From a virus (taxonomy: Duplodnaviria > Heunggongvirae > Uroviricota > Caudoviricetes): a stretch of DNA of 16,278 nt. This document shows, piece by piece, positions 1 to 16,278 of the stretch. Position numbers and translations under genes: made by a program. Below the pieces are notes generated by a model. It was not told the origin of the DNA. It did no database searches and worked only from the letters and a program-made list of their open reading frames with translations. The stretch lies in IMG/VR virus record IMGVR_UViG_2563366911_000006, one strand, 5' to 3'. Each line of letters opens with the position of its first letter. Position 1 is the stretch's first letter.

Positions 1-1254
1 ATGCCAAAACTCACAGATATGCAGATCCGCGCATGGATAAAAGCCGGAGAACATTTCGAAGGTCGTGCTGATGGTGGTGGGCTATATCTCCGGTATAGAG
101 AGGTGGATAGATCCCCTACCTGGCGGTTTCGATATAAACTAGCAGGAAAATCTCGTGCCATGCTTATTGGTTCATATTCTGAATTATCGTTATCAAAAGC
201 GAGGGAACGGGCAAAAGAACTTTCCGCACGAGTTGCTTTGGGATATGACGTAGCCGCAGAAAAACAGCAGCGTAAAGCCGAAGCACTGGCAAAAATAGAA
301 GCCGAAAAAAACGCGCTGCACGTTTCTGAACTTGCCGCCGAATACTTTGAACGGCAAATACTTCCCCGGTGGAAACACCCAGATATTCTCCGTAGGCGCA
401 TTGATAAAGACATAAATCCAGCCATAGGCCACATGAAGGTTGAAGATGTAAAACCACGCCATATTGATGCTATGCTTAAAAGTATTGTTGATAGAGGCGC
501 TCCAACAATTGCTACTGACGTTCTTCGCTGGACACGTCGCATATTTGACTACGGTATTAAACGCCTTGCTTTGGAAGTTAACCCCTGCTCAGCTTTCGAA
601 GTTTCAGATGCTGGTGGGAAAGAATTATCTCGTGATCGTTGGCTGAACCGGGACGAATTAATCCAATTTTTTCAGGCAATGCGTAAAGCCAAAGGATTCA
701 GCCGCCAGAACGAATTAACCTTTAAGTTGCTCCTGGCGTTGTGTGTCAGAAAAATGGAATTATGCGCCGCCAAGTGGGATGAATTCGACTTAGATGGCGC
801 GATTTGGCATCTACCAGAACAACGAACTAAAAATGGTGATGCTATCGACATACCATTGCCACCAGCGGCTATAGAATGGTTGCGAGAATTGCATACATTT
901 TCATGCAATAGCGCATGGGTATTACCTGCCAGAAAAATGCAGCACAGAATGATCCCTCACATCCAGGAAAGCACCCTTCCTGTTGCATTGGCAAAAGTCA
1001 GAGCAGAAATGCCGAACGTCCCCAACTTTACAATTCACGACTTCCGGCGAACAGCACGAACACATTTAGCAGCATTGGGAGTTGACCCGATCGTTGCTGA
1101 ACGATGCCTTAACCACCGCATAAAAGGCGTAGAGGGCATTTATAACCGCCATCAATATTTTGATGAGCGCAAAGCGGCACTAGCACAGTGGACTGATTTG
1201 CTGGTGAATTTAGAAAACATGATATGTTCTGACATCACGCAATCTAATAAATAA
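1..1254 (+). CDS. int: Tyrosine-type site-specific integrase, P4 family
   Basis: 417-aa ORF starting at base 1. N-terminal arm-binding-type region, then catalytic motifs: Arg in LCVRKMEL, HDFRRTARTH (H-x-x-R), and GIYNRHQY (His/Tyr nucleophile region). Recognised by family resemblance from memory, not by search. Confidence 0.93.
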   Translation: MPKLTDMQIRAWIKAGEHFEGRADGGGLYLRYREVDRSPTWRFRYKLAGKSRAMLIGSYSELSLSKARERAKELSARVALGYDVAAEKQQRKAEALAKIEAEKNALHVSELAAEYFERQILPRWKHPDILRRRIDKDINPAIGHMKVEDVKPRHIDAMLKSIVDRGAPTIATDVLRWTRRIFDYGIKRLALEVNPCSAFEVSDAGGKELSRDRWLNRDELIQFFQAMRKAKGFSRQNELTFKLLLALCVRKMELCAAKWDEFDLDGAIWHLPEQRTKNGDAIDIPLPPAAIEWLRELHTFSCNSAWVLPARKMQHRMIPHIQESTLPVALAKVRAEMPNVPNFTIHDFRRTARTHLAALGVDPIVAERCLNHRIKGVEGIYNRHQYFDERKAALAQWTDLLVNLENMICSDITQSNK

Positions 1255-1310
1255 TAGACATTAAGGCTAATTCATTAACGAATATATTTTTTCATAACGG
1301 TAGTGCAATC

Positions 1311-2093: not shown

Positions 2094-2205
2094 TGAAATA
2101 AGAAAAGTCACAGTGTTTTTTCTAAAACTCACACACACATCATTTCATTTGTTATTTAATGCCCCTATTACAAATCACAAACCAACAACAAAGGTAATGG
2201 GGCAT

Positions 2206-2424: not shown

Positions 2425-2503
2425 TAAAACAGCTACGGGATCAGGCGCCCCAGCTATCCACCAGCAAACAGCAATTAACCAGATTCGATAGCAGGAGTTT
2501 TTT

Positions 2504-3304: not shown

Positions 3305-3976
3305 CGCTCTGACCGTTACAAAAAGAGAAAGCGCCCCGTTGCCGGAGCGCCTTTGTGAACGAATAGCCTACTGCGCCATATTGCTTACTGTCTACGAGGC
3401 AGATTATAGCGTTGTGGTCGCACAGAGTGAAGGCGCTGATCACCGTTACTACAGCACGCCAGAAATGCAGAATATTTTGCTGCAAAATGTCGTTGGTCAC
3501 GCTGTCCGGAAAGCAAAAAATTTTGCTGGTGGCGCGACTGATGCGATTTTGTCAGGTCGCAAGGTGATGATCAATCTGATGTCTAATTTCGTTCTGGATA
3601 AAACAAAGGCGACCGCAGAGGGCCACCAGTGGGAAAGCTACACACTTGAACACATCGCCAACAATGCCAGATTTGCGGCTGGTGGGCAATGTGATCAGTG
3701 TGCTGGCTTGCTGGTGGGCTATTCCTGCTCTTTAACATTGCCATGCCGCGATGTTTTCCAGGTATGCGACCCCATTTTTGTGCGCCTGTACTCTTTAAGG
3801 AATTTCTCAAGGATAAACGCACAGGGCGCGAATCTGTCTGACTCATATTCGTACGCTATCTTTCTGCGCTGTCTTTTCCGTGCCGGTGATGGTGTATTGG
3901 TCGATTCTTTGTTGGTCATTCTGTGTACCTGTAAAGCAATGCGCCGGAGTTCCTCACACCACGGCGATGATAGTTA

Positions 3977-4282
3977 TTATTCTGATTCTTTGGCCTTGCG
4001 GCGCTGGAGTTCTTCACGTGCGACGGTGACGAGCTGCCCGATCTCCTCGACAGCTTTGACTCCGATTTTTTCCACCTGCGCCAGTGCATTGAGCGAAGAA
4101 ACCAGGGGATTTTCTCCGCTTCCTTCTGCCTGGCGGCGGGCGATCTCACCACGCATGGCGGTTACTATGAATCCGGCGTTGCTTTCGCCGTCCAGTTTTA
4201 CGGATTCCATGCCTTCAAAAGCATCATGTGGGATACGAATTGAAATCTGTTTTGATTTGTCGTTGATAGTGTTTTTTGCCAT
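3977..4282 (-). CDS. Putative ribbon-helix-helix DNA-binding regulator
   Basis: 101 aa from ATG at 4282 (minus strand) with AGGAGA Shine-Dalgarno. N-terminus KQISIRIPHDAFEGMESVKL...FIVTAMRGEIARRQ fits a beta-strand/helix/helix RHH fold. Divergent from the rightward operon. The opposite-strand frame here reads as Ser/Arg-rich junk. Confidence 0.7.
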   Translation of the reverse strand: MAKNTINDKSKQISIRIPHDAFEGMESVKLDGESNAGFIVTAMRGEIARRQAEGSGENPLVSSLNALAQVEKIGVKAVEEIGQLVTVAREELQRRKAKESE

Positions 4283-4469
4283 GTGCATTCTCCTAAACAA
4301 AAGATGTGATTCAGTATACACAAAAAAGAATCACAAAAAATACTTGACCTGTGATTCAGTTAAATTTAATTTAAATCACACCTCAGTAAGAGGATATAAA
4401 CGACAACGCCCCGAACTGTTTGCGGCAGTAGCGGGGCGTCTAACCAAACCGTTAAATGAGGTAACGATT
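4283..4469. promoter_or_regulatory. Divergent control region with operator-like repeats and a leader hairpin
   Basis: Two 11-bp direct repeats TGTGATTCAGT (4305-4315, 4350-4360), each with an inverted partner GAATCACA/AATCACA (4328-4335, 4374-4380). Candidate rightward promoter TTGACC (4345-4350) with a TAATTT-type -10. Candidate leftward -10 TATACT (minus strand, 4313-4318). GC hairpin ACGCCCCG-N18-CGGGGCGT (4406-4439) in the operon leader. Confidence 0.5.
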
Positions 4470-4835
4470 ATGGCTGGGGCACAGCATACCCAAACTCACC
4501 CTAAATTTATATACACCTTCCTTGCGGTGCACCGTGATTGCATGGCTGACGGTAAAAACACTGTTCATGTAGCCGCCGATACGCTGGTTGATGCCTGCGA
4601 GATGCTCAATGACATGGGCTATATCTCGGCAACATGGAAAGGGCGCGAAGAAAACACGTTGTTTATTCAGAAATGCGAAAACAATTTTATCTGGCGTTTT
4701 ATCGCCCTGAGTACGGCACAACCGCGCGTGATTCACATCGAGGCCACCAGCGAACAGGAAGCACGCCAGCAATCTCCTGATGGCTGCGTGATGGTATTCG
4801 CTGCCCGTATTCGCCAGGAGGTGGAGCATGTGTAA
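4470..4835 (+). CDS. Hypothetical satellite-operon protein (possibly Icd-like)
   Basis: 121 aa, GAGGT Shine-Dalgarno 8 nt upstream of ATG 4470. It is the only protein-like part of the 512-aa ORF-track frame. Family assignment is from memory and uncertain. Confidence 0.65.
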   Translation: MAGAQHTQTHPKFIYTFLAVHRDCMADGKNTVHVAADTLVDACEMLNDMGYISATWKGREENTLFIQKCENNFIWRFIALSTAQPRVIHIEATSEQEARQQSPDGCVMVFAARIRQEVEHV

Positions 4836-5052
4836 TGCAACATGGCCTGATGCAGCGGTAGACGCTATCAAAACGCTGATGGATTCACTTATTGAGATTT
4901 CTGCTATCGCTGGTGTGGCGCATAAACACGCAGCCAGAGAATCAGAATGCATCTCCCATTATTTAGCATTTGTGCAGCTGAAAGCCGATCAGGCACTGGA
5001 TAAGGCCGGAAAAATTATCATGGCTGATGTACAGGAGGTGCACCATGCATAA
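4828..5052 (+). CDS. Hypothetical small protein
   Basis: 74 aa. Start overlaps upstream stop (ATGTGTAA), consistent with translational coupling. Confidence 0.5.
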   Translation: MCNATWPDAAVDAIKTLMDSLIEISAIAGVAHKHAARESECISHYLAFVQLKADQALDKAGKIIMADVQEVHHA

Positions 5053-5410
5053 CCTGTCAATTTCTGACCTTAACAGCATTCAGTTTGACGAGATATTTTC
5101 CGGGCAGCTACTGGTTAACGTGGAGAATGGACGCGTGGTAAGTAATTATCACCTGCCGGATGGTGCAATTGCCGGAAGCGTTGAAGCATTGCTGGAACTG
5201 GCGGAACGTGCGCGACTGATTAAGCCGTCAACGTGCCATCACGATGATGATCTGCATTTTACCGGGTGTATGGTGAGTCACTACGAAAACGGCGTTGAAG
5301 TATCCTGCGAACGTCTGCGTGATGATTGCTGTTTCGGCACACTGCCGGAATTTATCGAATTGCTGACCAGTTGCGGTTATCAGGTCATTCAGGGGGGTAA
5401 ACATGCGTGA
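5045..5410 (+). CDS. Hypothetical protein
   Basis: 121 aa from ATG 5045 with GGAGG Shine-Dalgarno (5033-5037). Overlaps upstream stop (ATGCATAA). Confidence 0.6.
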   Translation: MHNLSISDLNSIQFDEIFSGQLLVNVENGRVVSNYHLPDGAIAGSVEALLELAERARLIKPSTCHHDDDLHFTGCMVSHYENGVEVSCERLRDDCCFGTLPEFIELLTSCGYQVIQGGKHA

Positions 5411-5636
5411 TGATCGTTTTAATTCCCTGAAACAGGAGTTTGATGGCGCACCGGAAGATACATCGGGCGCATTGTTGAGCATTGCTGACATGATGAAAGC
5501 TGCATATTTTCTTATCAATACCAGGGGCTACAAGTCAGAGGGTGAAATGATTCTTAGTATTGCGTCGGACTATGCTGAATATGTGGCAGAGACGCGTTAC
5601 AGAAGAAAATCTCTGGAGGATGTAAGCCATGCATAA
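5403..5636 (+). CDS. Hypothetical small protein
   Basis: 77 aa. ATGCGTGA start/stop overlap with upstream gene. Confidence 0.55.
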   Translation: MRDDRFNSLKQEFDGAPEDTSGALLSIADMMKAAYFLINTRGYKSEGEMILSIASDYAEYVAETRYRRKSLEDVSHA

Positions 5637-5829
5637 TCATGAAGCGCATGTACCCGTAGTGCTTAATGTGCCAGATGATTTCACCGGACGCGTGCTGGTT
5701 TACCTTGATAAAGAAAAAGTGAAATCACAATGCCGACTGAAAAGTAATGAGATTGTGGGTTCTCCTGAATTTTTTTCTGAACTCTGTATTCGTGCAGAAA
5801 TAAAACCGGAACTGCTGACAGGAAAATAA
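5629..5829 (+). CDS. Hypothetical small protein
   Basis: 66 aa. ATGCATAA start/stop overlap with upstream gene. Confidence 0.5.
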   Translation: MHNHEAHVPVVLNVPDDFTGRVLVYLDKEKVKSQCRLKSNEIVGSPEFFSELCIRAEIKPELLTGK

Positions 5830-5833
5830 AACC

Positions 5834-6124
5834 ATGAAAAGGAAAAATTCTGGCTTTACTGCCAGCGGTCTCTCTCGGCCTGAAATCAGACACGGAGATA
5901 TTTACCGCGACACCAGACGTGGGGGACGAGTGGTTATTCGTCACGTTACGCCAGGCAATATCACCTACCGCCGTGAGGCTTACGAATATGACTGCGTAAT
6001 GCCGCGCCGTCAGTTTGAGCGTGATTTTATTCTGGTGGAAAACAAACAACAGGCAGTGGCGAGACGTGCAGCCACGAATATTAAAAAAATCCGGGCAATG
6101 TTGGTTGCGGGAGGTAAGAAGTGA
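5834..6124 (+). CDS. Hypothetical small basic protein
   Basis: 96 aa, starts 4 nt after the previous stop. Its stop overlaps the GTG start of the primase (GTGA). Confidence 0.6.
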   Translation: MKRKNSGFTASGLSRPEIRHGDIYRDTRRGGRVVIRHVTPGNITYRREAYEYDCVMPRRQFERDFILVENKQQAVARRAATNIKKIRAMLVAGGKK

Positions 6125-7926
6125 AAAACGCACCGAATTTAAAATATCAGCCGAAGGATAAATTCACCGAGGTAATCATTTTTGCCGGGACGGATGCTTA
6201 CGCCCATGCTCAACACTGGATTGAAAGCGAAGGACGAAAACACGGCGATAACGTGCCTCCTGTTTACCTGGGGCCAAAGCAACTGGCAGACCTGGCGAAT
6301 ATCCGCATTGTCGACGATGAACGCCGCTTTGCGCGTGTCTATCTCGCGGGGGAGATAGAGCCAATCCAGATCAATGCTATTGCTGAAAAGCTGGCGCTGG
6401 CTGGTGTACAGGACGCGAAATTATACAAAGGTATCACCGACCGGGAGCCGGAAAACTGGCGCGACTACCTGCAACGGATCCGCGAACAGGCAGAGAGTGG
6501 GGAAGTTTCAGCGATGAAATTAGCCACAAAAAATATTGACCTATCTAGGCCAGCACTAAATCAGATGGGAGCCAGCCAGAGAGGGGAAGTGTTACTTGAA
6601 TATTATGGAAGAGCACTGGCTATAAATGATGATTCTGATGTAGTTCACCATTACAACGGAATTGTCTGGGTGCCTGTATCTGATAAGGAACTCCAGCGGT
6701 CTATGGCGAAGATTTTTATTGATGCTGGAATCAGTTATTCGCAAAACGCCATTAAATTTGCCGTAGACACAATGAAATTGAGCCTGCCTGTTATGGGCGG
6801 GGCAGACAGGAATCTTATTGGATTCAGTAACGGGGTATTTGATACCCGGACGGGAAATTTTCGGGAGCATAACAAAAATGACTGGTTGTTAAATGCCAGT
6901 GAATTACCGTTCAGCCCACCAGCAGAGGGGGAAACGCTGGCAACACATGCGCCGAATTTCTGGAAGTGGCTGCGTCGTTCGGTGGCAGATAATGATCGTA
7001 AAGCTGATCGCGTACTGGCGGCATTATTCATGGTGCTGGCGAACCGGTACGACTGGCAGTTATTCCTTGAGGTAACAGGCCCAGGCGGAAGCGGTAAAAG
7101 TGTGATGGCTGAGATTTGTACCATGCTGGCGGGTAAGGCAAACACAGTATCGGCAAGCATGAAGGCTCTGGAAGACGCAAGGGAACGCGCGTTAGTAGTT
7201 GGCTTTTCGCTGATTATCATGCCGGATATGACTCGCTACGCTGGCGATGGTGCAGGAATTAAGGCAATTACTGGCGGCGACAAGGTGGCAATTGATCCGA
7301 AACATAAAGCCCCCTACTCCACACGTATTCCGGCAGTAGTGCTTGCGGTAAACAATAACGCCATGTCATTCAGTGACCGAAGCGGGGGGATCTCGCGTCG
7401 TAGGGTGATATTTAATTTCTCTGAGGTCGTACCGGAGAACGAACGCGATCCCATGCTGGCGGAAAAGATAGAAGGCGAACTGGCGGTAGTGATTCGCCAT
7501 TTGCTAACACGATTTACCGACCAGGACGAAGCTAAAAGACTACTTTATGAGCAGCAAAAATCAGAAGAAGCGCTGTTGATAAAGCGCGAAGGTGATTCAC
7601 TGGTGGACTTTTGCGGCTATCTGATGTCGTTGGTTAAATGTGAAGGAATGATGGTGGGCAATGCGGAAATAGTGCCATTTAGCCCGAGGCGATACCTGTA
7701 TCATGCTTATTTAGCCTATATGTCAGCGCATGGCCTGGGAAAACCAGTATCACTGACACGCTTTGGTACTGATATGCCAGGAGCTATGGCGGAATACGGA
7801 AAGGAGTATAAGCGGGCTAAATGCACTAAAGGCCCGGATAAAGGGCGAGTGATAACAAATGTTCTGTTAGATGATGATGCTGATGGCTGGTTGCCAGCAG
7901 CTACAGGGATTAACGACAGAACATAA
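6121..7926 (+). CDS. Replication primase/helicase, P4 alpha-type C-terminal family (P-loop NTPase)
   Basis: 601 aa, GTG start with GGAGG Shine-Dalgarno. Walker A motif TGPGGSGKS near aa 316 (about nt 7066-7092). Overall resemblance to the P4-family primase C-terminal/helicase region. Followed directly by iterons. Confidence 0.88.
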   Translation: MKNAPNLKYQPKDKFTEVIIFAGTDAYAHAQHWIESEGRKHGDNVPPVYLGPKQLADLANIRIVDDERRFARVYLAGEIEPIQINAIAEKLALAGVQDAKLYKGITDREPENWRDYLQRIREQAESGEVSAMKLATKNIDLSRPALNQMGASQRGEVLLEYYGRALAINDDSDVVHHYNGIVWVPVSDKELQRSMAKIFIDAGISYSQNAIKFAVDTMKLSLPVMGGADRNLIGFSNGVFDTRTGNFREHNKNDWLLNASELPFSPPAEGETLATHAPNFWKWLRRSVADNDRKADRVLAALFMVLANRYDWQLFLEVTGPGGSGKSVMAEICTMLAGKANTVSASMKALEDARERALVVGFSLIIMPDMTRYAGDGAGIKAITGGDKVAIDPKHKAPYSTRIPAVVLAVNNNAMSFSDRSGGISRRRVIFNFSEVVPENERDPMLAEKIEGELAVVIRHLLTRFTDQDEAKRLLYEQQKSEEALLIKREGDSLVDFCGYLMSLVKCEGMMVGNAEIVPFSPRRYLYHAYLAYMSAHGLGKPVSLTRFGTDMPGAMAEYGKEYKRAKCTKGPDKGRVITNVLLDDDADGWLPAATGINDRT

Positions 7927-7953
7927 TACGAAATTTATAAGCTGAAACGTAAA

Positions 7954-8289
7954 GGTAGACGGTTGGTAGACAGATTCACTTAACCCTCTACCAACCATCT
8001 ACCAATTAATATTTTGAATTATAAAGATATTTTCAATGTAGTAGAGAGGTAGACAGTTATTTCTATATTCCTAAACCACGGGGGGTATATAAAAAACAGA
8101 TAGTTAAGGGGGCATTTTTTAAATTTCTCTTTTAACTGTCTACACTGTCTACCATTTAGTAAAAATCATTAATTATCAATGTATTAATGCGGTAGACCGT
8201 TGGTAGACAGTTTGCAGATTGTTTTTTTGTTATGTGTTAATAACATTAAATAAATCAATCAATTATATCGGTAGACAGTTGGTAGACAG
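7954..8289. repeat. Iteron array, putative satellite replication origin
   Basis: Repeated GGTAGAC(N)GTTGGTAGACAG units in both orientations (7954-7973, inverted 7987-8002, 8041-8056, inverted 8136-8153, 8191-8210, 8270-8289) separated by AT-rich DNA. No ORF of 60 aa or more. Immediately 3' of the primase/helicase gene. Confidence 0.7.
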
Positions 8290-8301
8290 TTGTAACGATG
8301 G

Positions 8302-8310
8302 GGCAAAGCA
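8302..8310. repeat. IS10 target-site duplication, left copy (GGCAAAGCA)
   Basis: 9-bp sequence identical to 9640-9648, directly flanking the IS10 ends. Confidence 0.9.
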
Positions 8311-8356
8311 CTGATGAATCCCCTAATGATTTTGGTAAAAATCATTAAGTTAAGGT

Positions 8357-8425
8357 GGATACACATCTTGTCATATGATCAAATGGTTTCGCGAAAAATC
8401 AATAATCAGACAACAAGATGTGCGA
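8357..8425 (-). ncRNA. IS10 RNA-OUT antisense RNA (position inferred)
   Basis: Placed by offset from the IS10 outside end using textbook IS10 organisation. Imperfect inverted repeat CATCTTGTC (8364-8372) / GACAACAAGATG (8409-8420) fits the RNA-OUT stem overlapping the transposase start. Confidence 0.45.
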
Positions 8426-9626
8426 ACTCGATATTTTACACGACTCTCTTTACCAATTCTGCCCCGAATTACACTTAAAACGACTCAACAGCTTAACGTT
8501 GGCTTGCCACGCATTACTTGACTGTAAAACTCTCACTCTTACCGAACTTGGCCGTAACCTGCCAACCAAAGCGAGAACAAAACATAACATCAAACGAATC
8601 GACCGATTGTTAGGTAATCGTCACCTCCACAAAGAGCGACTCGCTGTATACCGTTGGCATGCTAGCTTTATCTGTTCGGGCAATACGATGCCCATTGTAC
8701 TTGTTGACTGGTCTGATATTCGTGAGCAAAAACGACTTATGGTATTGCGAGCTTCAGTCGCACTACACGGTCGTTCTGTTACTCTTTATGAGAAAGCGTT
8801 CCCGCTTTCAGAGCAATGTTCAAAGAAAGCTCATGACCAATTTCTAGCCGACCTTGCGAGCATTCTACCGAGTAACACCACACCGCTCATTGTCAGTGAT
8901 GCTGGCTTTAAAGTGCCATGGTATAAATCCGTTGAGAAGCTGGGTTGGTACTGGTTAAGTCGAGTAAGAGGAAAAGTACAATATGCAGACCTAGGAGCGG
9001 AAAACTGGAAACCTATCAGCAACTTACATGATATGTCATCTAGTCACTCAAAGACTTTAGGCTATAAGAGGCTGACTAAAAGCAATCCAATCTCATGCCA
9101 AATTCTATTGTATAAATCTCGCTCTAAAGGCCGAAAAAATCAGCGCTCGACACGGACTCATTGTCACCACCCGTCACCTAAAATCTACTCAGCGTCGGCA
9201 AAGGAGCCATGGATTCTAGCAACTAACTTACCTGTTGAAATTCGAACACCCAAACAACTTGTTAATATCTATTCGAAGCGAATGCAGATTGAAGAAACCT
9301 TCCGAGACTTGAAAAGTCCTGCCTACGGACTAGGCCTACGCCATAGCCGAACGAGCAGCTCAGAGCGTTTTGATATCATGCTGCTAATCGCCCTGATGCT
9401 TCAACTAACATGTTGGCTTGCGGGCGTTCATGCTCAGAAACAAGGTTGGGACAAGCACTTCCAGGCTAACACAGTCAGAAATCGAAACGTACTCTCAACA
9501 GTTCGCTTAGGCATGGAAGTTTTGCGGCATTCTGGCTACACAATAACAAGGGAAGACTCACTCGTGGCTGCAACCCTGCTTACTCAAAATCTATTCACAC
9601 ATGGTTACGTTTTGGGGAAATTATGA
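8418..9626 (+). CDS. IS10 transposase
   Basis: 402-aa ORF MCELDILHDSLYQFCPELHLKRLNSLTLACHALLDCKTLTLTELGRNLPTKARTKHNIKRIDRLLGN... recognised as the IS10/Tn10 transposase. Full length, intact frame. Confidence 0.95.
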   Translation: MCELDILHDSLYQFCPELHLKRLNSLTLACHALLDCKTLTLTELGRNLPTKARTKHNIKRIDRLLGNRHLHKERLAVYRWHASFICSGNTMPIVLVDWSDIREQKRLMVLRASVALHGRSVTLYEKAFPLSEQCSKKAHDQFLADLASILPSNTTPLIVSDAGFKVPWYKSVEKLGWYWLSRVRGKVQYADLGAENWKPISNLHDMSSSHSKTLGYKRLTKSNPISCQILLYKSRSKGRKNQRSTRTHCHHPSPKIYSASAKEPWILATNLPVEIRTPKQLVNIYSKRMQIEETFRDLKSPAYGLGLRHSRTSSSERFDIMLLIALMLQLTCWLAGVHAQKQGWDKHFQANTVRNRNVLSTVRLGMEVLRHSGYTITREDSLVAATLLTQNLFTHGYVLGKL

Positions 9627-9639
9627 GGGGATCTCTCAG

Positions 9640-9648
9640 GGCAAAGCA
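9640..9648. repeat. IS10 target-site duplication, right copy (GGCAAAGCA)
   Basis: Identical to 8302-8310. Its last base is the A of the ATG of the next gene. Confidence 0.9.
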
Positions 9649-10178
9649 TGACTAAGCTGACCATTAACAGAAAACCAAAAGGTATTTACGGCACGCCGCA
9701 GAAAACGACGCAGGCGGCACAGGAGCAGGATAAAACCACATCGGCGCATAAAGTGATGCCCGGTAACCAGAAAGCGCAGCAGAAGCCTACAGGGGCGACA
9801 CCGTGGCGGCATATGACCAAACGCCAGCGCAAAAACCGCAGGCGCGTTAACCGCCTCACTGAGTTGTGGCCTGACTTATTCAGCCGGGAAGCACTGAAGC
9901 CGCTTAAGGTGGGGATATTCGACGACCTGATGCAGGATCTCGCCGCCAGGGGGCTGGCATTCGGGCCAGGGGCATTGCGTGCGACGCTGGCATCTTATGC
10001 GCAGTGTCCGCGCTATTACCGCGCCTTAATGGCTGGTGGGGTACGCTACGACCTGAAAGGCCAGCCGTGCGGCGAGGTGACACCACAGGAACAACAGGAC
10101 GCAGAAACGCGGCTGGTGGCGCTGAATGAGAAGCGCAAACGCCAGTGCCGGGCAGCAAAGGAGACAATAGGCGCATGA
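9648..10178 (+). CDS. ProQ/FinO-domain protein (RNA chaperone-like)
   Basis: 176 aa, GC-rich. Segment PLKVGIFDDLMQDL...LRATLASYAQCPRYYRALMAGGVRYDLKGQPCGEVTPQEQ closely parallels the conserved ProQ/FinO core (PLKIGIF..DL...R.DL.G.PCGE). IS10 lies immediately upstream. Confidence 0.72.
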   Translation: MTKLTINRKPKGIYGTPQKTTQAAQEQDKTTSAHKVMPGNQKAQQKPTGATPWRHMTKRQRKNRRRVNRLTELWPDLFSREALKPLKVGIFDDLMQDLAARGLAFGPGALRATLASYAQCPRYYRALMAGGVRYDLKGQPCGEVTPQEQQDAETRLVALNEKRKRQCRAAKETIGA

Positions 10179-10462
10179 TTCACGACAGCAAAGCGGAAGC
10201 ACTGGAAGCGCGTGGTCTGTACCGGAGAGCGGCGGCGCGGTGGGCTGAGGTCATCATGCTGGCGAATGATGACAAGGCACGGGAACAGGCGGCAAAACGT
10301 CGCGCGGAATGTATCCACAAGGCAGCACGCCCACCAGCAAGGCAGGATAATTTCGGGGAGATGCGCGAAACCATCAGCCGGGCACATGCCGGGATGGGAT
10401 TACATCAGCCCAATGGTGAGGCATTCAGGAAATACCAAAAAAAGAACAATTGTAGTCAGTAA
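10175..10462 (+). CDS. PerC-family-like small transcriptional regulator
   Basis: 95 aa from ATG 10175, overlapping the upstream stop (ATGA). N-terminal AEALEARGLYRRAAARWAEV recalls the PerC family. Assignment from memory, moderate certainty. Confidence 0.6.
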   Translation: MIHDSKAEALEARGLYRRAAARWAEVIMLANDDKAREQAAKRRAECIHKAARPPARQDNFGEMRETISRAHAGMGLHQPNGEAFRKYQKKNNCSQ

Positions 10463-10596
10463 CAGAGGATGGGATTCTCTTGGTTTTTTGTTGATGCTTT
10501 CTGAGGAAATCTACTACGTTGCTGAGCAGATGAATATTCAATTGCATCTGGGTTCCTGATAAGATTAATCTGAATATTTTCATTTGGAATAGGGAT

Positions 10597-11739
10597 ATGA
10601 ATAAAACTTTAATTGCAACATTAGTCGGTATAGTAATGTTAACCGGATGTGGGCCAGAAGAGTTAACTCCAGAACAGAAACAGGAAGTAGCTGCTCTTAA
10701 AGCTGAACTGTCGCAAACGGAAGGTGAAATATCAGCAGCTAAGGAAGTTGACCAGCAGTTTTCTGGTGGGTTGATAAAAAATCTGACAACAGCAAGACTG
10801 GAAATATTAGGAACTAATAAAGCGCTTTTGGAACAGCGTATTAATGCTATTGAATCAGGTGCCAAAATTGATGTTGTTGTATCTGGAGTAAAACCTGATC
10901 CTGAGCTTGCGGCTTCAATTAAAACTGAAATTGACAGCTTAGATGCAAAAATCAACGAAGCCAAAGCTGATGCTCGTCAGTATAGTGGTGGTCTGATAAA
11001 GGTACTAAAATTATCTACTGTTGCCACTGAAGAGCAGACCATGGCAATGTTGCAGCAAAAGTACCTCACAGCCAAGTATGGCCTCGCTGAAGTTAAGCTG
11101 GCATCAGTACAAGCTAATGACGCAAAAAACAGTACTGAAACGGAAGTAACAGCCAAAAATTCCCAAGAGCAACTTCCTTTACTCCCGCCAGCGGATGGTC
11201 CGTTTGGCTTAGAAGCCGGTCTTACACAGAAAAACATCGAAGATATGATCGGTGCTAAGCTCAAGCCACTACCAGACAGTGTGAATCTGTATACTTCTGA
11301 TAAATTACCGAAGCAAAACGCAGATTTTGAAATGTATGGTTTGCTGATCTCCCCGAAAGCTGGTTTATGTCAAATACGGGCTTTAGGAAAAAATATTGAT
11401 ACTGATAGCTATGGATTGGCTCTTAAATCCAAGTTTGAAGAATTGAGTAATTCTTTAAGTTCTCTGTATGGAAAGGCTGATACTACAGACTTTTTGCTGG
11501 CTGGTTCAATTTGGAAAGATCCTCAGGACTGGATGAGGGGGCTAAACAAAAAAGAACGCTTCTTATCTGCCACATGGAAGGGAACAAAAGAAATACCATT
11601 AAAAAACAATATTGATACTATATCTATTGAGGCCAGAGCGAACAATTCCACTCAGGGATATGTCTATCTGCAGTACTCATTTACAAATGACGAAATTTGT
11701 CAGGCAGAAATTGAAGGGGCGAAAAAAAGTTCCCTTTAA
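10597..11739 (+). CDS. Lipoprotein with internal repeats, function unknown
   Basis: 380 aa. Signal peptide with lipobox LTGC (Cys18). Two copies of a Q(F/Y)SGGLIK motif about 70 aa apart in a coiled-coil-like N-terminal half. AT-rich. Followed by a strong terminator. Confidence 0.85.
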   Translation: MNKTLIATLVGIVMLTGCGPEELTPEQKQEVAALKAELSQTEGEISAAKEVDQQFSGGLIKNLTTARLEILGTNKALLEQRINAIESGAKIDVVVSGVKPDPELAASIKTEIDSLDAKINEAKADARQYSGGLIKVLKLSTVATEEQTMAMLQQKYLTAKYGLAEVKLASVQANDAKNSTETEVTAKNSQEQLPLLPPADGPFGLEAGLTQKNIEDMIGAKLKPLPDSVNLYTSDKLPKQNADFEMYGLLISPKAGLCQIRALGKNIDTDSYGLALKSKFEELSNSLSSLYGKADTTDFLLAGSIWKDPQDWMRGLNKKERFLSATWKGTKEIPLKNNIDTISIEARANNSTQGYVYLQYSFTNDEICQAEIEGAKKSSL

Positions 11740-11751
11740 ACAATCCGTGCA

Positions 11752-11778
11752 AAGCCCCTTAGTAAGGGGCTTTTATAT
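11752..11778 (+). terminator. Rho-independent terminator
   Basis: Perfect 9-bp stem AAGCCCCTT / AAGGGGCTT with 3-nt loop, followed by TTATATATT. Confidence 0.7.
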
Positions 11779-11803
11779 ATTAATGTTCAACGTGGGGGAT
11801 TAG

Positions 11804-12127
11804 ATGAAAGATAATCTAGCAAAACTAATTGAAAATACTTTAAAAGATATTCTATTAGCTAATGCTGCTCTAACATTCATTTTTGCAATACCAATGGCTA
11901 TTATCAGTAGGCATGGGATGGGCATCACAATCTGGTTTATAACTGTGCTCATTGCACCTGCTCTGTGTGCAGTAGGTGCATGGCTTGTATCTCGAACATC
12001 CGGCCATGCTGAGGAGTTCTTTCATCGTCGGTGGGCTAAGCGAATTTATGTTTTTTATACTCTTGCGGCTGCCGAGTTTTTGCTTGTGTACTCAATCGCG
12101 CAAATAATGAAAAATCTGATGAAATAA
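11804..12127 (+). CDS. Small integral membrane protein (about 3 TM helices)
   Basis: 107 aa, GGGGGA Shine-Dalgarno. Three hydrophobic stretches of about 20 aa (LANAALTFIFAIPMAIIS, ITIWFITVLIAPALCAVGAWLV, IYVFYTLAAAEFLLVYSIAQIM). AT-rich. Confidence 0.7.
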   Translation: MKDNLAKLIENTLKDILLANAALTFIFAIPMAIISRHGMGITIWFITVLIAPALCAVGAWLVSRTSGHAEEFFHRRWAKRIYVFYTLAAAEFLLVYSIAQIMKNLMK

Positions 12128-12395
12128 TTAACAAGTTATTATCATGGAGCTTGTGGCTGTTAACCTGCAGTGAGGCGACAATCGTGTATTTATAAAAACT
12201 TCCCCTTTTCACTCCCCGCTGCTTCTTCTGCTATTGCCTTTATGTTTGCATCTGCCATACCTTTGCAGAAAAATCAGAGCATTCAGTGCCGAAGGTTGGT
12301 TTATTGATGCTTTTCGTTTCATTTATTGCAATTGTCTCTGGTATCATTTCAATTTGTGCAATAATTGCAATTATTGTCATTCAGAAGGGATCATC

Positions 12396-12563
12396 ATGAA
12401 AAATCACGGAGTAAAGCCAGTTTTACTTTCCCGGAGGCAGATCGAAGCCCTGCAACGCATCCAGGACGAAGAGCGTCAGAAATCTGTGCTTGGTGTGGCA
12501 CCGTCGATTCATGTTATCGCTCGGCAACTGATGGATAAGGCACTTAAAGAGGTGAGACTGTGA
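12396..12563 (+). CDS. Small hypothetical protein (possible DNA-binding regulator or antitoxin-like)
   Basis: 55 aa from ATG 12396 with AAGGGA Shine-Dalgarno 5 nt upstream. Upstream region carries ATTGCAAT-type palindromic repeats. The ORF-track start (12234) is probably too far upstream. Confidence 0.55.
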   Translation: MKNHGVKPVLLSRRQIEALQRIQDEERQKSVLGVAPSIHVIARQLMDKALKEVRL

Positions 12564-12832
12564 AATTAAATATCAGAGTGGATAAACGCCAGCTATGGCA
12601 GAAAAAAGAGAACAGCGAGGCATTCAGGGCGTTGCTGGTGGAAAATCTTCAGCATCGGTTCAGTGGAGAGTTGCCTGATGCTCTAGGGAAGAAACTGGAA
12701 TCCCTGACGGTGGAAATTGGCGATTATGGCTTTGTTGATGTTGAAAGCACGACTGCCAACACAGAAATCGTAAAACAGGTCGTCAATGATGTAATGAAAA
12801 CCACGCTTAGCCAGCCATCCTGGCGCAACTGA
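12560..12832 (+). CDS. Small acidic hypothetical protein
   Basis: 90 aa. GTG start overlapping the upstream stop (GTGA), suggesting a coupled two-gene unit. Followed by a hairpin terminator. Confidence 0.55.
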   Translation: MKLNIRVDKRQLWQKKENSEAFRALLVENLQHRFSGELPDALGKKLESLTVEIGDYGFVDVESTTANTEIVKQVVNDVMKTTLSQPSWRN

Positions 12833-12838
12833 ATCAGT

Positions 12839-12862
12839 AAGGGGCGGTTATTGCCCCTTTCC
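12839..12862 (+). terminator. Putative rho-independent terminator
   Basis: Stem AAGGGGC / GCCCCTT with 7-nt loop followed by TTCCTCC. U-tract is weak. Confidence 0.5.
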
Positions 12863-12931
12863 TCCATACCCACAACGCATTCCCTTTCCGCATGAAATTA
12901 TTTTTTATCGTATATGCATGAGGTGAGCTAC

Positions 12932-13459
12932 ATGTTGATGAGTAAAGCCGAATACGCCAAATACAAAGGCGTAAGCCGCCAGACAGTTTACGACTGGCTC
13001 GAGAAAGGCGAAGTGGTCATGTCCGGTAAAAAAATTGATGTGGAGGCGACAGAGCAGCGGAACAGCCCACCGGCACAAGGGAAAGACACCGTTTCTGAAA
13101 TGTGGCCAGAAAGAACGCTGGAAATGACGTGGGGCGAGTTCTGGAAAGCAGTTAAGGCCAGAGACGGTAAAATTCCTTCGCCAGTAACGGACGATGACAT
13201 ACAGCAGCGTGTGCTGTATGCAGCCGGGGAATTAGGCTGGGAAGTGCACTTTCTTGATGATGGTGCTATCTGCCTTGAGGATGATGAAGGGCAGCATTAC
13301 TTTGAAAAATACAATTTGCGAGGTAATGCCAGGCTGGCAATTCGTATGCTGCGTTGCGAACTCTGCTATGTTGCAGGTGATTATCCCGATGAACTGGAAT
13401 CATGGAGTGAAGCCGGGCTAAACGCCCTGGCTGAATGGGAAAAATCAGACCATCAATGA
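12932..13459 (+). CDS. N-terminal HTH protein (possible small-terminase-like or packaging-redirection-like DNA-binding protein)
   Basis: 175 aa from ATG 12932 with GAGGTGA Shine-Dalgarno. N-terminus MSKAEYAKYKGVSRQTVYDWLEKGEV is an HTH of the type found at the N-terminus of small terminase / Nu1-like proteins. Acidic C-terminal domain. A repeat array lies immediately downstream. Confidence 0.65.
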   Translation: MLMSKAEYAKYKGVSRQTVYDWLEKGEVVMSGKKIDVEATEQRNSPPAQGKDTVSEMWPERTLEMTWGEFWKAVKARDGKIPSPVTDDDIQQRVLYAAGELGWEVHFLDDGAICLEDDEGQHYFEKYNLRGNARLAIRMLRCELCYVAGDYPDELESWSEAGLNALAEWEKSDHQ

Positions 13460-13464
13460 CATCA

Positions 13465-13733
13465 AAAAGTGTCAAGTTAAGCAGCTTGCCAGGTTGACAC
13501 TTTACACTCTGAACGCGAAAAAGTGTCAACCTCGCTAGAAGCCGCGCCATTACTGGCCTTGTACCATATTCACCACGTCAAAAAACCGAAAAAATCGCGA
13601 AAAGTGTCAAGTTGCCATGCTTAGAAATGCCAGGGGTGGTTAAGTTTTGTTAAGGTTTTTCGCGAAAAAGTGTCAAGTGTGTCAACCTGCGATGTTAAGG
13701 TTTGTTAAGGTCTTAAGCTGGAAAGTGTCAACC
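13465..13733. repeat. Array of AAAGTGTCAA-type repeats, putative protein-binding site cluster
   Basis: Seven copies of (CGCG)AAAAGTGTCAA(G/C): direct at 13465-13476, 13515-13532, 13597-13611, 13661-13677, 13676-13688 (variant), 13720-13733, and inverted at 13492-13503. Interleaved GTTAAGG(T) repeats (about 13640-13660, 13693-13712, 13741-13756). No ORF of 60 aa or more on the plus strand. Confidence 0.75.
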
Positions 13734-13763
13734 AGCCACCTAAGATTTCCTAAGGTGTAAATC

Positions 13764-13937
13764 ATGACCATCACCGAAGCCGATTTGCTGGAGATGATCC
13801 GCAGCATTGCCGGAATCAAACAACCTGCAAGAAAAATTAACAGGTGTTCAGCGCCTGTTTCCGTTGTGCTGCAACAGGAACGCCACCAGCAGGATGATGT
13901 GAGGCCGTATCAGTGGAAGAAACCGGACAGGCCGCGA
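13764..13937 (+). CDS. Small ORF (57 aa), possibly a gene remnant
   Basis: ATG 13764 with AAGGTG Shine-Dalgarno 7 nt upstream. First about 20 aa are protein-like (MTITEADLLEMIRSIAGIKQ), the remainder low-complexity. Below the ORF-track size cutoff. Confidence 0.3.
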
Positions 13938-13982
13938 CGGTGAGCGAGGCGTTACAGTAAGCCGATATTCAAGCCAAACATT

Positions 13983-14005
13983 AAGCCTACGGGCAAGGCT
14001 TTTTT
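13983..14005 (+). terminator. Putative rho-independent terminator
   Basis: Stem AAGCCT / AGGCTT with 7-nt loop followed by TTTTG. Confidence 0.5.
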
Positions 14006-14289
14006 GTAGCTGGTGGGCATGATGCCGATATAATAGCCCCTCCTACCAATTATCTGTGATTCCTATCTAACCTTCATCACGGACAACTAGAAAATCATTG
14101 TGGATAAATAAGGATCATAACGAATAAAGCATTTCATAGCAGAGCAACATACTGACTATTCAATACCCTGTTCAAACGTACAGGTATCAGTGTTATCAAC
14201 GTTTTAATAACCTTTCATGTTCTTTCCTACCACTTAAACTAGAGTAAAATGTGAAAAATTTATACCCATAAGTTTCATATGGAGGAACT

Positions 14290-16278
14290 GTGTTCCTAAT
14301 ATCTGACCTTAGCGACTTGCGTGCACTTTCGGAATCCGCAGAGCTAGAGTTCAAGCTAGCTCAAGGGAAAGACGGACAAGGTAAATTACCTGATGATTTC
14401 TGGCCAACCTATAGTGCTATGGCAAACTGCCGTGGTGGGTATGTGGTTTTAGGTATTAGAGAGAAAAAAGGGGAATTTTCCGTTGCGGGTATCTCAGATA
14501 TAAATACCGTTAAAAAGCAGCTTTTCGACCTCGTGAGCAACAAGAAAAAAGTTAACGTTAATCTTCTTACCAATAACTCTGTCCAAACAGTATCCTTACA
14601 GGGAAAGGATATTCTTGTCATTGAAATACCAATCGCACGACGAGAACAGAAACCTGTTTATTTGAATAATCAACCCATGTCAGAAACATGGTTTCGTATG
14701 CACGACGGTGATCATCGTTGTTCAGAAGAACAAGTTCGTCGCATGATGGCCGAACAGGTTGAAGAAAGCCGCGACAACCGTATCGTACAAAACTTCGACA
14801 TGAACGATATTAACCTAGAAAGCTTGTTGGCTTACAGAAATCTACTATCTGCTTCAAACCCGACACATCCAGCTCTCGAACTAGATAACTTTGCTTTCCT
14901 ACGAAGTATTGGGGGATATAGAAAAGACCGGCAAACAGGTTTGGAAGGCATGACCTTAGCTGGCATTCTCATGTTTGGAACATGGGAAGCGATACAAGAT
15001 GTAGCCCCAAATTATTTTGTGGATTACCAAGAACGCCCTGAAGCAAGAACTGAAAGAAGATGGGTAGATAGACTATGTCCCGATGGGACTTGGTCAGGTA
15101 ACGTGTTTGACTTTTACAGACGAACCTATCGAAAACTAATTGCTGACTTAAAAGTCCCTTTTGAGCTTAAAGAAGGTATCCGACAGGACGATACTCAGAT
15201 ACACACAGCATTGCGTGAAGCGCTGGTAAATACCTTAGTTCATGCCGATTATACTGGACGAATCTCCATCATGGTTGTGAAACGACCAGATCTATTTGGC
15301 TTCCGTAATCCAGGTTTGATGCGCGTGCCACCAGAACAAGCAATCAAAGGATATGAAAGCGATTGTCGAAACCGACTGATGCATCAAATGTTTTTAATTA
15401 TTGGTGCTGGTGAACGATCAGGCTCAGGGATCCCTAAAATATTTAGTGGCTGGAAATGGGCTAACTGGCGTATGCCAAGGCTATATGAAAAAACAGAACC
15501 AGAACAAACACTTTTGGAGCTATCTATTGGCAACCTCGTATCAGAAGAAATTGCCAATCTTCTCCATACAAAATTTGGCGACAAAGTAGACCATCTCAGT
15601 GAGCTTGAGCGCAGTATTGTTATAACTGCAGCCGTAGAAAAGTGGATTGACCATGAACGGGCTTGTCAACTAACTAGCCTTCACTCTCGTGAGGTAACTT
15701 TAGCCTTACCCCGCCTTGTAAGCGGCGGATTCTTAGTCCCTCATGGTGAGAAGAGGAATAAATCATATACATTACCGGGGCAGGATCTTCCATCTCCAGA
15801 GGAAGTTTTTGGTGTAAATCCGTTATCAACAGACAACTCATTCGCAAACGAAGCTCAAATCATCACGGATAGCGATAATTTGATCACGGATAACGAAGAA
15901 TTGATCACGGATAACGAAAAAGAACGAGATGCTTTAGGTCGTTTTATAACCGAGAAACTACCTTTTCCTTATGTGGATAACCTTGAGTGCCTTTCACCAA
16001 CCTTAAGGCAACGGTTAGAAGACATATCTGCATTAGCCAGAGAAAAGAAACGACTTTCCAACGAAACCATGGACGAAATCATACTTAAGCTTTGCTCAGG
16101 CCATTATATGCCGCTTAGTGTTATTGCAAAGTTAATGGCCCGAACACCACAGAACCTACGAGAAAAACAGCTCGTTCCATTAGTAAGATCCGGAAAAATA
16201 AGACTGGCATTTCCTCATGCGAGAAGACACAAACGACAGGGATATATTTCTTGTGAACAAGTACAAGTTAACAACTAA
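14290..16278 (+). CDS. Schlafen/AlbA_2-domain protein with GHKL-like ATPase-type region (COG2865-like) and extended C-terminus
   Basis: 662 aa, GTG start with GGAGG upstream. N-terminal SESAELEFK signature; LAGILMFG segment; LREALVNTLVHADY...FRNPG...ERSGSGIPKIF matching the HATPase_c_4-like core of COG2865 proteins; C-terminal HTH-like segments. Family call from memory of motifs. Ends exactly at the window end. Confidence 0.8.
   Translation: MFLISDLSDLRALSESAELEFKLAQGKDGQGKLPDDFWPTYSAMANCRGGYVVLGIREKKGEFSVAGISDINTVKKQLFDLVSNKKKVNVNLLTNNSVQTVSLQGKDILVIEIPIARREQKPVYLNNQPMSETWFRMHDGDHRCSEEQVRRMMAEQVEESRDNRIVQNFDMNDINLESLLAYRNLLSASNPTHPALELDNFAFLRSIGGYRKDRQTGLEGMTLAGILMFGTWEAIQDVAPNYFVDYQERPEARTERRWVDRLCPDGTWSGNVFDFYRRTYRKLIADLKVPFELKEGIRQDDTQIHTALREALVNTLVHADYTGRISIMVVKRPDLFGFRNPGLMRVPPEQAIKGYESDCRNRLMHQMFLIIGAGERSGSGIPKIFSGWKWANWRMPRLYEKTEPEQTLLELSIGNLVSEEIANLLHTKFGDKVDHLSELERSIVITAAVEKWIDHERACQLTSLHSREVTLALPRLVSGGFLVPHGEKRNKSYTLPGQDLPSPEEVFGVNPLSTDNSFANEAQIITDSDNLITDNEELITDNEKERDALGRFITEKLPFPYVDNLECLSPTLRQRLEDISALAREKKRLSNETMDEIILKLCSGHYMPLSVIAKLMARTPQNLREKQLVPLVRSGKIRLAFPHARRHKRQGYISCEQVQVNN

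Follow-up and report, generated by a model that had tools for sequence, protein, structure and literature searches.

An intact Schlafen-GHKL gene in the cargo slot of an Escherichia coli phage satellite: a plausible anti-phage defence gene

Here, we analyze the last gene of a 16,278-nucleotide stretch of DNA (the window hereafter), the IMG/VR virus record IMGVR_UViG_2563366911_000006, which is classified under Caudoviricetes. The gene encodes a protein of 662 amino acids (aa), in which an N-terminal Schlafen (Slfn) ribonuclease (RNase) domain is followed by a GHKL-type ATPase domain and by a tail of two winged-helix-turn-helix (wHTH) domains separated by a linker of heptad repeats. It is an intact, stand-alone prokaryotic Schlafen of the type termed ‘Schlatpase’, carried as the cargo of a phage satellite, and it probably acts as a latent anti-phage RNase. 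It constitutes a plausible defence gene that adds a member to a family already described, instead of representing a system of a new kind.

A 662-aa open reading frame (ORF) had been proposed here in the first-pass annotation of the window, and independent evidence agrees with it. The same coding sequence (CDS) is annotated by RefSeq in E. coli ABU 83972 as WP_000478740.1, which is 100% identical to the 662-aa protein and bears the product name ‘RNA-binding domain-containing protein’. The start Met of homologues is aligned to the same column as the GTG start, and a GGAGG motif is located just upstream (Table 1). The last base of the window is the end of the stop codon, and the window starts at the ATG of an integrase gene. 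Both signatures that had been noticed in the protein are found, that is, E..LEFK as ESAELEFK at aa 15-22, and the GHKL core as LREALVNTLVHADY...GERSGSGIPKIF. The AT-richness mentioned earlier is right in direction and only modest in size, since the GC content of the gene is 42.4% versus ~46% for the island backbone. A literature search by the accession WP_000478740.1 found nothing.

The assignment of the two enzymatic domains is supported by Pfam, by the relatives and by fold comparison, in line with the AlbA_2 and HATPase_c_4 domains recognized at first sight. In the Pfam scan, SLFN_AlbA_2 (PF04326) is matched over aa 15-144 with 48.3 bits (cut-off 25.3), and both families match all of 35 diverse relatives (33-54% identity), with a best HATPase_c_4 E-value of 9e-15. 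Distant full-length relatives were gathered by a representative search and a profile search into a 91-sequence alignment, the profile of which matches the PDB entry 3lmm at positions 307-409 and also matches 2kyy by sequence. E15, E20 and K22 are invariant in the alignments of 39, 35 and 91 sequences, and so are E310/N314 and the lid residues G372, G374, G378, S379 and G380. The catalytic E-x4-E-x-K and the ATPase E-x3-N are kept down to 33% identity across phyla. Judged by these residues, the Slfn and GHKL active sites are intact. Among the invariant residues of the middle domain are W258, D260, R261, D265, G266, W268, G270 and N271. It should be noted that a motif scan found no Walker A motif in the 662-aa protein; the residues relevant for mutation are therefore E15/E20/K22 and E310/N314, instead of the Walker motif suggested before.

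A first AlphaFold model based on 39 close homologues was too poor (mean predicted local distance difference test, pLDDT, of 57) and was replaced by a monomer model based on the 91 sequences (pLDDT 84.7). In the Foldseek search, the Slfn-GHKL-wHTH body best matches 3lmm (DIP2311 of C. diphtheriae, E 1e-21), and the N-terminus matches 2kyy (TM-score normalised to target 0.61) as well as mammalian SLFN5/11/12. The E-values of the human and other mammalian SLFN matches range from 1e-3 to 1e-2, and the matches to SLFN13 and SLFN14 came from the first, lower-confidence model. The fold matches of the ATPase domain are the histidine-kinase CA domains 4u7o and 7zp0, plus 3lmm, and those of the tail are MarR/ArsR wHTH proteins. 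Two wHTH-like domains are present in the model, which bears out the HTH-like C-terminal segments reported at first. The Fic-like_C family (PF21247) is found in close homologues and in 7 of the 35 diverse relatives; on the C-terminus of the protein itself the match is below significance, so that this assignment rests on the homologues. The scan with NCBIfam gave no meaningful match, and neither PrrC nor ABC domains were matched in the Pfam, NCBIfam and PADLOC scans of the protein. The PADLOC matches are only local and concern the N-terminal regions of prokaryotic Argonaute (pAgo)- and SIR2-associated proteins. Some homologues are labelled ‘AAA family ATPase’, apparently an older designation of the AlbA_2 domain that has persisted.

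Table 1. Coordinates of the Schlafen-GHKL gene, its domains and the accompanying features in the window.
Feature	Coordinates	Strand	Remarks
Schlafen-GHKL (‘Schlatpase’) CDS, with wHTH - heptad linker - wHTH tail	14290..16278	+	662 aa, GTG start
Shine-Dalgarno GGAGG	14281..14285	+	4 nt 5' of GTG, read directly
Schlafen/AlbA_2 RNase domain, aa 1-157	14290..14760	+	PF04326; 2kyy by sequence and fold; SLFN folds
Catalytic motif E15-x4-E20-x-K22 (ESAELEFK)	14332..14355	+	Sole Ex4[ED]xK match in the protein
Conserved middle domain, ~aa 170-300, bridging Slfn and GHKL	14797..15189	+	Part of the supradomain; pLDDT mostly >85
GHKL (Bergerat-fold) ATPase domain, aa 301-412	15190..15525	+	E310-x3-N314; G372-x-G-E-R-x-G-S-G380
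First winged-helix-turn-helix (wHTH1), aa 419-495	15544..15774	+	Secondary structure of the model; MarR/ArsR-type fold matches
Disordered acidic linker, tandem heptads (I/L)ITD(N/S)xx	15805..15921	+	Tandem Repeats Finder (TRF); pLDDT <50; lag-7 periodicity
C-terminal helical/winged domain, aa 545-657	15922..16260	+	pLDDT >90; Fic-like_C-type wHTH in homologues
Cargo-specific AT-rich upstream region, ~270 bp	14021..14289	+	34.6% GC; backbone homology ends ~14020
Terminator-like hairpin (13983-14001) and T-run, end of the conserved backbone	13983..14010	+	
59-aa backbone ORF	13764..13943	+	Conserved; located before the variable cargo slot in every related island examined
Tyrosine integrase of the satellite	1..1254	+	Integrase domains

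The C-terminus had been described as repeat-bearing, and a 21-bp tandem DNA repeat of 2.9 copies is indeed detected by TRF at 15862-15921, which codes for heptads of the form (I/L)ITDxxx within a linker predicted to be disordered (aa 506-538 in the AlphaFold model). Among the linkers of the 91 homologues, a lag of 7 gives the top autocorrelation in 85, and this signal is exceeded by no more than 5 of 500 shuffles in 79; autocorrelation of the remainder of the protein did not reveal it in the 91 sequences. The heptad unit varies by lineage (ITDxxxx, LTHxxxx, SSEHxxx, SSGHxxx or SSDDLxx, in ~2-6 copies), while its core stays Ser/Thr-rich and acidic with His/Asp in every lineage type. The heptad linker is thus kept across phyla, in almost the whole clade, and our limited literature search found no published description of it. 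Among close homologues, the mean identity is 85% for the GHKL domain, 74% for the middle domain, 73% for Slfn, 66% for wHTH1, 46% for the C-terminal domain and 40% for the linker, so the C-terminal domain is the most variable folded part of the protein. A constant effector with a variable tail has likewise been reported for pSlfn5 (PMC13056530). The protein was said to be longer than typical members. This holds against the forms of ~450-580 aa, such as those of Psychromonas sp. RZ5 (453 aa), the Streptococcus satellite Javan416 (503 aa) and 3lmm (583 aa), but not against a large sub-clade, for which 650-690 aa is the norm.

Prokaryotic Schlafens (pSlfns) have been found to act against phages through the cleavage of tRNAs in response to a trigger (Perez Taboada et al., Nat Microbiol 2026, PMC13056530). 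They share the motif Ex4(E/D)xK, and the dead mutant E15A/D20A of RorSlfn5 concerns the same positions as in the window protein; the commonest pSlfn fusions are ‘HisKinase’ (34.0%) and ‘HisKinase-HTH’ (19.2%) (PMC13056530). The pair of Slfn and PF13749 is what has been named ‘Schlatpase’, which makes up 58.6% of 103,533 prokaryotic Slfn proteins; the majority of Schlatpases are small and carry an HTH at the C-terminus (bioRxiv 10.64898/2026.05.29.728809). In addition, at least 1,017 taxa were found to have Schlafen-minimal-HisK-wHTH proteins beside BREX loci, and these proteins were read as backup suicidal effectors (NAR 2026, PMC12839542). Since the Schlafen defence, Schlatpase and BREX papers cover its kind, the 662-aa protein is a member of a described family, and the former view of an undescribed function among poorly characterised homologues is outdated.

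Several of these systems can be compared with the window protein directly. RorSlfn5 and EcoSlfn7 share with it the N-terminal PF04326 domain with E15, E/D20 and K22, the organization as a single-gene effector with a fused sensor, and the context of mobile elements or defence islands. However, the partners of the validated pSlfns are Ig-like or DUF262 domains instead of GHKL and wHTH, and the tail assembly chaperone that serves as trigger is a feature of RorSlfn5. The SLFN-pAgo protein RzAgo undergoes ATP-driven tetramerisation, its residues E314/N318 bind the gamma-phosphate and Mg, and defence is lost in both the nuclease-dead D32A and the ATPase-dead E314A mutants (10.64898/2026.05.29.728809). 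Slfn and GHKL follow in the same order in RzAgo and in the window protein, the E-x3-N ligands E314/N318 correspond to E310/N314 here, and the pAgo model of PADLOC aligns to aa 38-344. Unlike RzAgo, the window protein is devoid of an Argonaute core and has two wHTHs and the heptad linker instead; therefore, it lacks a sensor based on a guide RNA and probably does not form filaments.

The best structural match over the Slfn-GHKL-wHTH body is DIP2311 (3lmm), which, like 2kyy, is a structural-genomics protein. 3lmm comprises 583 aa with 13-16% identity, and the heptad linker and the second C-terminal domain lie outside the alignment. The BREX-linked Schlafen-minimal-HisK-wHTH proteins show the same three-part architecture, which has been interpreted as a suicidal RNase layered on a DNA-targeting system. 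Their description is computational and concerns BREX, whereas the window clade goes with type I restriction-modification (R-M) and the window copy is solitary on a satellite. With the human tRNases SLFN11/12/13/14, the protein shares a homologous RNase C-lobe fold and the catalytic motif, and in the human proteins antiviral tRNA cleavage is under the control of an ATPase domain. In contrast, mammalian SLFNs have a bilobed nuclease and an ATPase of the superfamily 1 helicase type, versus one lobe and GHKL in the bacterial protein.

Then, how might such a protein work? From its homologues, we infer an RNase activity, a tRNA substrate, an ATP-driven oligomeric switch and an anti-phage phenotype. 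The protein would be latent in uninfected cells. Upon activation, the single-lobe Slfn domains would be paired, so that a composite RNase site (E15/E20/K22) could form, and the licensed site would cleave host and phage tRNAs and thereby stop translation and phage production, as in an abortive or growth-arrest defence. The variable C-terminal module, composed of wHTH1, the acidic heptad tether and wHTH2, may act as a sensor or an auto-inhibitor that sets the trigger specificity, or alternatively as a docking module.

Some observations weigh against this interpretation. The HATPase_c_4 match on the protein itself (24.8 bits, aa 337-402) is slightly below the Pfam cut-off of 26, a marginal assignment that is secured because all 35 relatives match the family and the profile matches 3lmm. 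PADLOC 2.0 contains no dedicated model for a Schlafen-GHKL protein as a system, no sigma-70 consensus was detected by the promoter scan of the upstream region, and no partner or antitoxin has been identified for the gene. The sensor of RzAgo is its Argonaute core (10.64898/2026.05.29.728809), a role for which the wHTH tails are no more than candidates. About 30% of pSlfn genes are located away from defence genes (PMC13056530). In the phage assays, two systems from each of four architecture groups including HisKinase were taken, of the eight constructs one could not be synthesized, and protection against the panel of E. coli phages was limited to two, the DUF262 and Ig-like fusions; the HisKinase-fusion group gave no coliphage protection, so that no positive assay exists for this architecture (PMC13056530). 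The gene had been called a strong candidate for an anti-phage function. It is a reasonable candidate, and ‘strong’ is too optimistic because the tested constructs of this architecture gave no protection.

The position of the gene is that of satellite cargo. In ABU 83972, the island sits between yicC and dinD, whereas yicC-dinD is uninterrupted in K-12, which represents the empty site. At the island junctions, 21 bp of the yicC 3' end are duplicated, with the attachment (att) sites attL AGATCCAGAATATTGAGTAAC and attR AGATTCAGAACATTGAATAAC matching at 18 of 21 positions, and integrative mobilizable elements have been reported to use the 3' end of yicC as an att site (PMC8409611). The attL site lies ~190-210 bp before the window, and attR starts ~123 bp beyond the stop codon, which is the window end. 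Therefore, the island ends with the Schlafen-GHKL gene as its last gene, and the question raised at the outset of where attR would fall is settled. The island carries the integrase gene followed by a small HTH gene, an AntA antirepressor, an Icd-like gene, a D5-type primase (D5_N/DUF5906/Pox_D5), ProQ/FinO and PerC, where Icd-like and PerC are taken from RefSeq. Neither virion or lysis genes nor R-M genes were found in it by the domain scan of the window and in the RefSeq annotation. The integrase end, the att repeats, the empty site, the primase, antirepressor and PerC genes, the size of ~13-16 kb and the lack of structural and lysis genes were the features by which a satellite was recognized. 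The published description of EcCIMP1-type phage-inducible chromosomal islands (PICIs) fits the gene content and the backbone (PMC11773190), and on these sequence features the island is best classified as an EcCIMP1-like phage satellite in the yicC 3' end.

Within the island, the Schlafen-GHKL gene is the single accessory gene of the attR-proximal variable slot, as expected from the solitary gene seen at first. It is present in 8 of 5,426 complete E. coli genomes by megablast and sensitive blastn, always on the chromosome and with at least 99.9% identity; no plasmid copies were found in E. coli. This distribution, together with the lack of the island in K-12, indicates that it is not a conserved chromosomal regulator, which had been set as a check. 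When the slot is defined as the position after the 59-aa ORF, diverse cargoes can be found there in related islands. For example, strain PD23 carries a type II methyltransferase, a DUF262 protein and a HEPN nuclease, and the DUF262 protein is matched by the PADLOC models NsnA (1e-55) and PD-T4-2_A (1e-41); this cargo is a known defence module. Two strains have a DUF4747 protein and a 199-aa unknown protein (L005 7871-9363 and L006 7821-9313), one has an Orc1/Cdc6-like ATPase (L007 7784-8983), one has a pair of unknown proteins of 123 and 329 aa (L003 20952-22320), and in one further strain the slot is empty. PADLOC gave no match or only weak ones for the cargoes of L003, L005, L006 and L007, which are, judged by position, candidate uncharacterised defence genes.

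Beyond E. coli, the distribution of the family is patchy and points to horizontal transfer. Gammaproteobacteria often carry close homologues of full length (61-98% identity, 648-690 aa), and relatives occur in at least 594 species-level genomes of many phyla. At the level of 50% clusters, 5,982 related clusters were found, including 1,042 with E<=1e-30; for many, the alignment spans the whole length at identities as low as ~35%, and others share only residues 1-500. Plasmid copies of relatives are rare. A Yersinia relative (88%) is the last gene of a different satellite-like island, with a DUF927 primase and a small terminase, by yicG-ligB-gmk-spoT-recG. An Enterobacter relative (90%) is found in yet another island (yicC-int-...-Slfn), and both of these islands occupy the same locus as in E. 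coli. A Salmonella relative (63%) is beside an integrase remnant, an Edwardsiella relative (76%) is within an integrative and conjugative element (ICE), and a Vibrio relative (63%) is carried by a Tn7-like element, in which it is preceded by hsdR-hsdM-hsdS and followed by an AAA_15/21 ATPase pair. In addition, nine Streptococcus satellite phages carry distant relatives (~30% identity), which occupy an integrase-adjacent accessory slot in all four satellites inspected.

The neighbours were surveyed in 63 species-level loci with flanks of the ~650-aa clade, where ORFs were called and the nearest neighbours were scanned. Across the clade, defence genes predominate among them. The next gene downstream encodes a type I HsdR in 18-21 of the 63 loci, and at least 12 have HsdS as the next gene upstream; the other immediate neighbours include JetD, AbiEii, SIR2, Type ISP, DUF4145 and integrases. 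By local tblastn within 8 kb, HsdR and HsdM were each found in 26 loci, both in 24 and either in 28, which leaves 35 of 63 without type I R-M nearby. Among the 24 loci with both genes, 23 show the order hsdM-(hsdS)-slfn-hsdR on one strand. At locus L047 (Inhella), the order hsdM-hsdS-slfn-hsdR is upheld by Pfam, and hsdS and slfn overlap by 4 nt. The closest R-M-embedded relative examined, from Psychromonas sp. RZ5 (L073 6531-10005), could not serve as a clean example because its gene is frameshifted. Two tandem Schlatpase paralogues are located there between hsdS and hsdR, of which the 453-aa one consists of Slfn and HATPase_c_4 and ends directly in Fic-like_C, and the long one, 70% identical to the window protein, is split into 409 and 249 aa.

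This arrangement recalls prrC, a tRNA anticodon nuclease gene embedded in the type I R-M locus EcoprrI (PMC12707154, PMC1484252, PMC3458546), the product of which has been termed an ‘RM guardian’ (PMC12707154). Could the window protein be such a latent tRNase, which watches type I R-M and fires when phage anti-restriction disables it? PrrC is a latent NTPase-regulated tRNase in a type I R-M locus, and by analogy the clade shows such a layout in 23 of the 63 loci. The flanking of the gene by hsdM and hsdR in 24 loci, the overlap at L047, the Vibrio gene that starts 90 bp after hsdS, and the Schlatpase fused to HsdS that was reported in Poribacteria (10.64898/2026.05.29.728809) all argue for this possibility. 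However, the folds are unrelated (an ABC-ATPase and the PrrC nuclease versus GHKL and Slfn), no sequence kinship to PrrC and no physical interaction are known, and most loci surveyed are without type I R-M nearby. Moreover, the E. coli copy is not R-M linked and its nearest relatives in Yersinia, Enterobacter, Edwardsiella and Salmonella are solitary too. In this scenario, the satellite copy would act in trans with a type I R-M system of the host. The resemblance to PrrC is thus best described as one of gene layout and logic rather than of family, and we regard guarding of R-M as an unlikely role for the window copy.

A more speculative extension, which we hold to be similarly unlikely, is that the ~650-aa clade is the Schlafen-fold counterpart of PrrC, with a sensing or auto-inhibitory heptad array, and that satellites have acquired a form of it that functions by itself or in trans with the R-M system of the host. 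The tRNase of the clade could then normally sit between hsdS and hsdR and read the state of the type I R-M complex. The heptad array might be a nucleic-acid-mimic tether that occupies the RNA groove; alternatively, it might serve as a decoy to which anti-restriction proteins or kinases of the phage bind, or it might accept phosphate from the histidine-kinase-like domain next to it.

Another explanation, which is quite improbable, is that the protein is a DNA-binding regulator, whose wHTHs bind DNA and control satellite or host genes, and whose Slfn and GHKL domains bind ligand or nucleic acid without catalysis. COG2865 bears the legacy annotation ‘predicted transcriptional regulator’, and some homologues are named ‘predicted HTH transcriptional regulator’. 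The two wHTH-like domains with MarR/ArsR fold matches fit such a role, as do the negative phage assays of the HisKinase-type pSlfns (PMC13056530) and an iteron-like array upstream of the gene. This array (13460-13740), directly 3' of a 181-aa HTH_17/MerR-like ORF, contains six exact copies of AAGTGTCAA versus 0.14 expected; they sit in longer units such as CGCGAAAAAGTGTCAA, and a second motif, GTTAAGKTTTGTTAAGGT, occurs twice. It could be a satellite replication origin, a pac/cos site or an operator array. However, the region 13400-14020 is present with ~91-94% identity in 169 E. coli genomes, mostly without the Schlafen-GHKL gene, and because most islands with the same backbone and iterons are without the gene, the satellite does not need it. 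In addition, invariance of E-x4-E-x-K and E-x3-N over such divergence would not be expected for a pure regulator, and the gene is also found in R-M operons, Tn7-like elements and ICEs. The 830-bp regulatory region that was proposed in front of the gene consists mostly of conserved satellite backbone, and only ~270 bp are specific to the gene. The promoter is presumed to be located in this part; since the sigma-70 scan was empty, no promoter is claimed.

It is no less doubtful that the gene serves the satellite itself and not the host, by interfering with the helper phage for packaging or as a toxin for addiction or stabilisation. According to the literature, interference with helper phages is common among PICIs, the gene is located in a satellite, and its distant relatives in Streptococcus satellites take the integrase-proximal slot. 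However, most related satellites are without the gene, most members of the clade are outside satellites, and no antitoxin-like partner is present. Least probable of all, and hardly to be expected, is an intact passenger that is silent or inert in these E. coli strains: the missing promoter consensus, the island decay in ABU 83972 (a frameshifted ProQ and a truncated SSB) and the frameshifted Psychromonas orthologue would fit, against which stand the full-length ORF, all catalytic residues, the strong Shine-Dalgarno sequence and the near-identical sequence in 8 genomes.

The latent anti-phage RNase is therefore the explanation that we favour, and its significance lies in the abundance of the architecture. 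Slfn-GHKL-wHTH is the commonest form of bacterial Schlafens, about half of the prokaryotic Slfn proteins in two surveys, and its stand-alone function is still to be demonstrated. The window copy provides a convenient test case, as a single gene in E. coli with its own ~270-bp upstream region in a defined satellite slot. If defence and its trigger could be demonstrated, the main gap left by the Schlafen papers of 2025-26 would be filled; if the gene is inert, a stand-alone member from E. coli would be added to the published negatives for the architecture. Two concrete and inexpensive hypotheses for how Schlatpases are silenced and switched on come from the R-M-embedded layout and from the conserved heptad linker.

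A phage origin of the gene was also considered and rejected. The check covered a phage collection and a viral fold library, and the matches were satellites, a mislabelled Salmonella contig, unannotated human faecal fragments and isolated Slfn or wHTH domains; no full-length copy was found in an annotated true phage of the phage collection. One of the faecal fragments, the unannotated ‘Bacteriophage sp.’ record MT837377.1, aligns over 83% of the query with 23% identity. As a separate observation, a DinD homologue with 55% identity to E. coli DinD (E 5e-103) adjoins the Schlatpase gene in the Streptococcus satellite Javan416 (L021 3567-4415), and the E. coli Slfn gene is separated from dinD downstream (L001 23243-24067) by 360 bp, which include attR. 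A general functional link between Slfn and DinD was rejected, since DinD is missing from three other Javan satellites and from the loci of Yersinia and Enterobacter. The dinD gene of E. coli might have been left behind by an old island at the yicC att site.

The island is a recombinant. The integrase end (1-3574) and the cargo end (12316-16278) are ABU 83972-like with 98.6-100% identity, and the core (2972-8314 and 9639-13758) shares 98.5-99.6% identity with the island of strain 537-20, which has a different integrase and occupies the tRNA-Thr/proA site. This mosaic suggests the exchange of modules between satellites with different att sites. The 12-bp direct repeat AGGTGTACACAT was tried as the att core and dropped, since the comparison with K-12 shows the 21-bp yicC duplication instead. 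Its copies are located at L001 9572-9583 (~70 bp before the window) and 22916-22927 (~37 bp past the window end), and near them, just inside both island ends, there are GTGTACCCAAAGG / GGTGAACCCAAAG-like sequences; the repeats may be arm-type binding sites of the integrase or excisionase. Two ORFs of the window, at 3297-4835 (512 aa) and 10597-11739 (380 aa), have no Pfam match at E<=0.01, and in the ABU 83972 annotation several small genes take the place of the former. Finally, an IS10 insertion at ~8315-9638, with RNA-OUT at 8356-8425 (Rfam full-length, 98.8 bits) and a DDE_Tnp_1 transposase at 8418-9626, is located between the primase and ProQ/FinO genes and is missing from the ABU 83972 copy.

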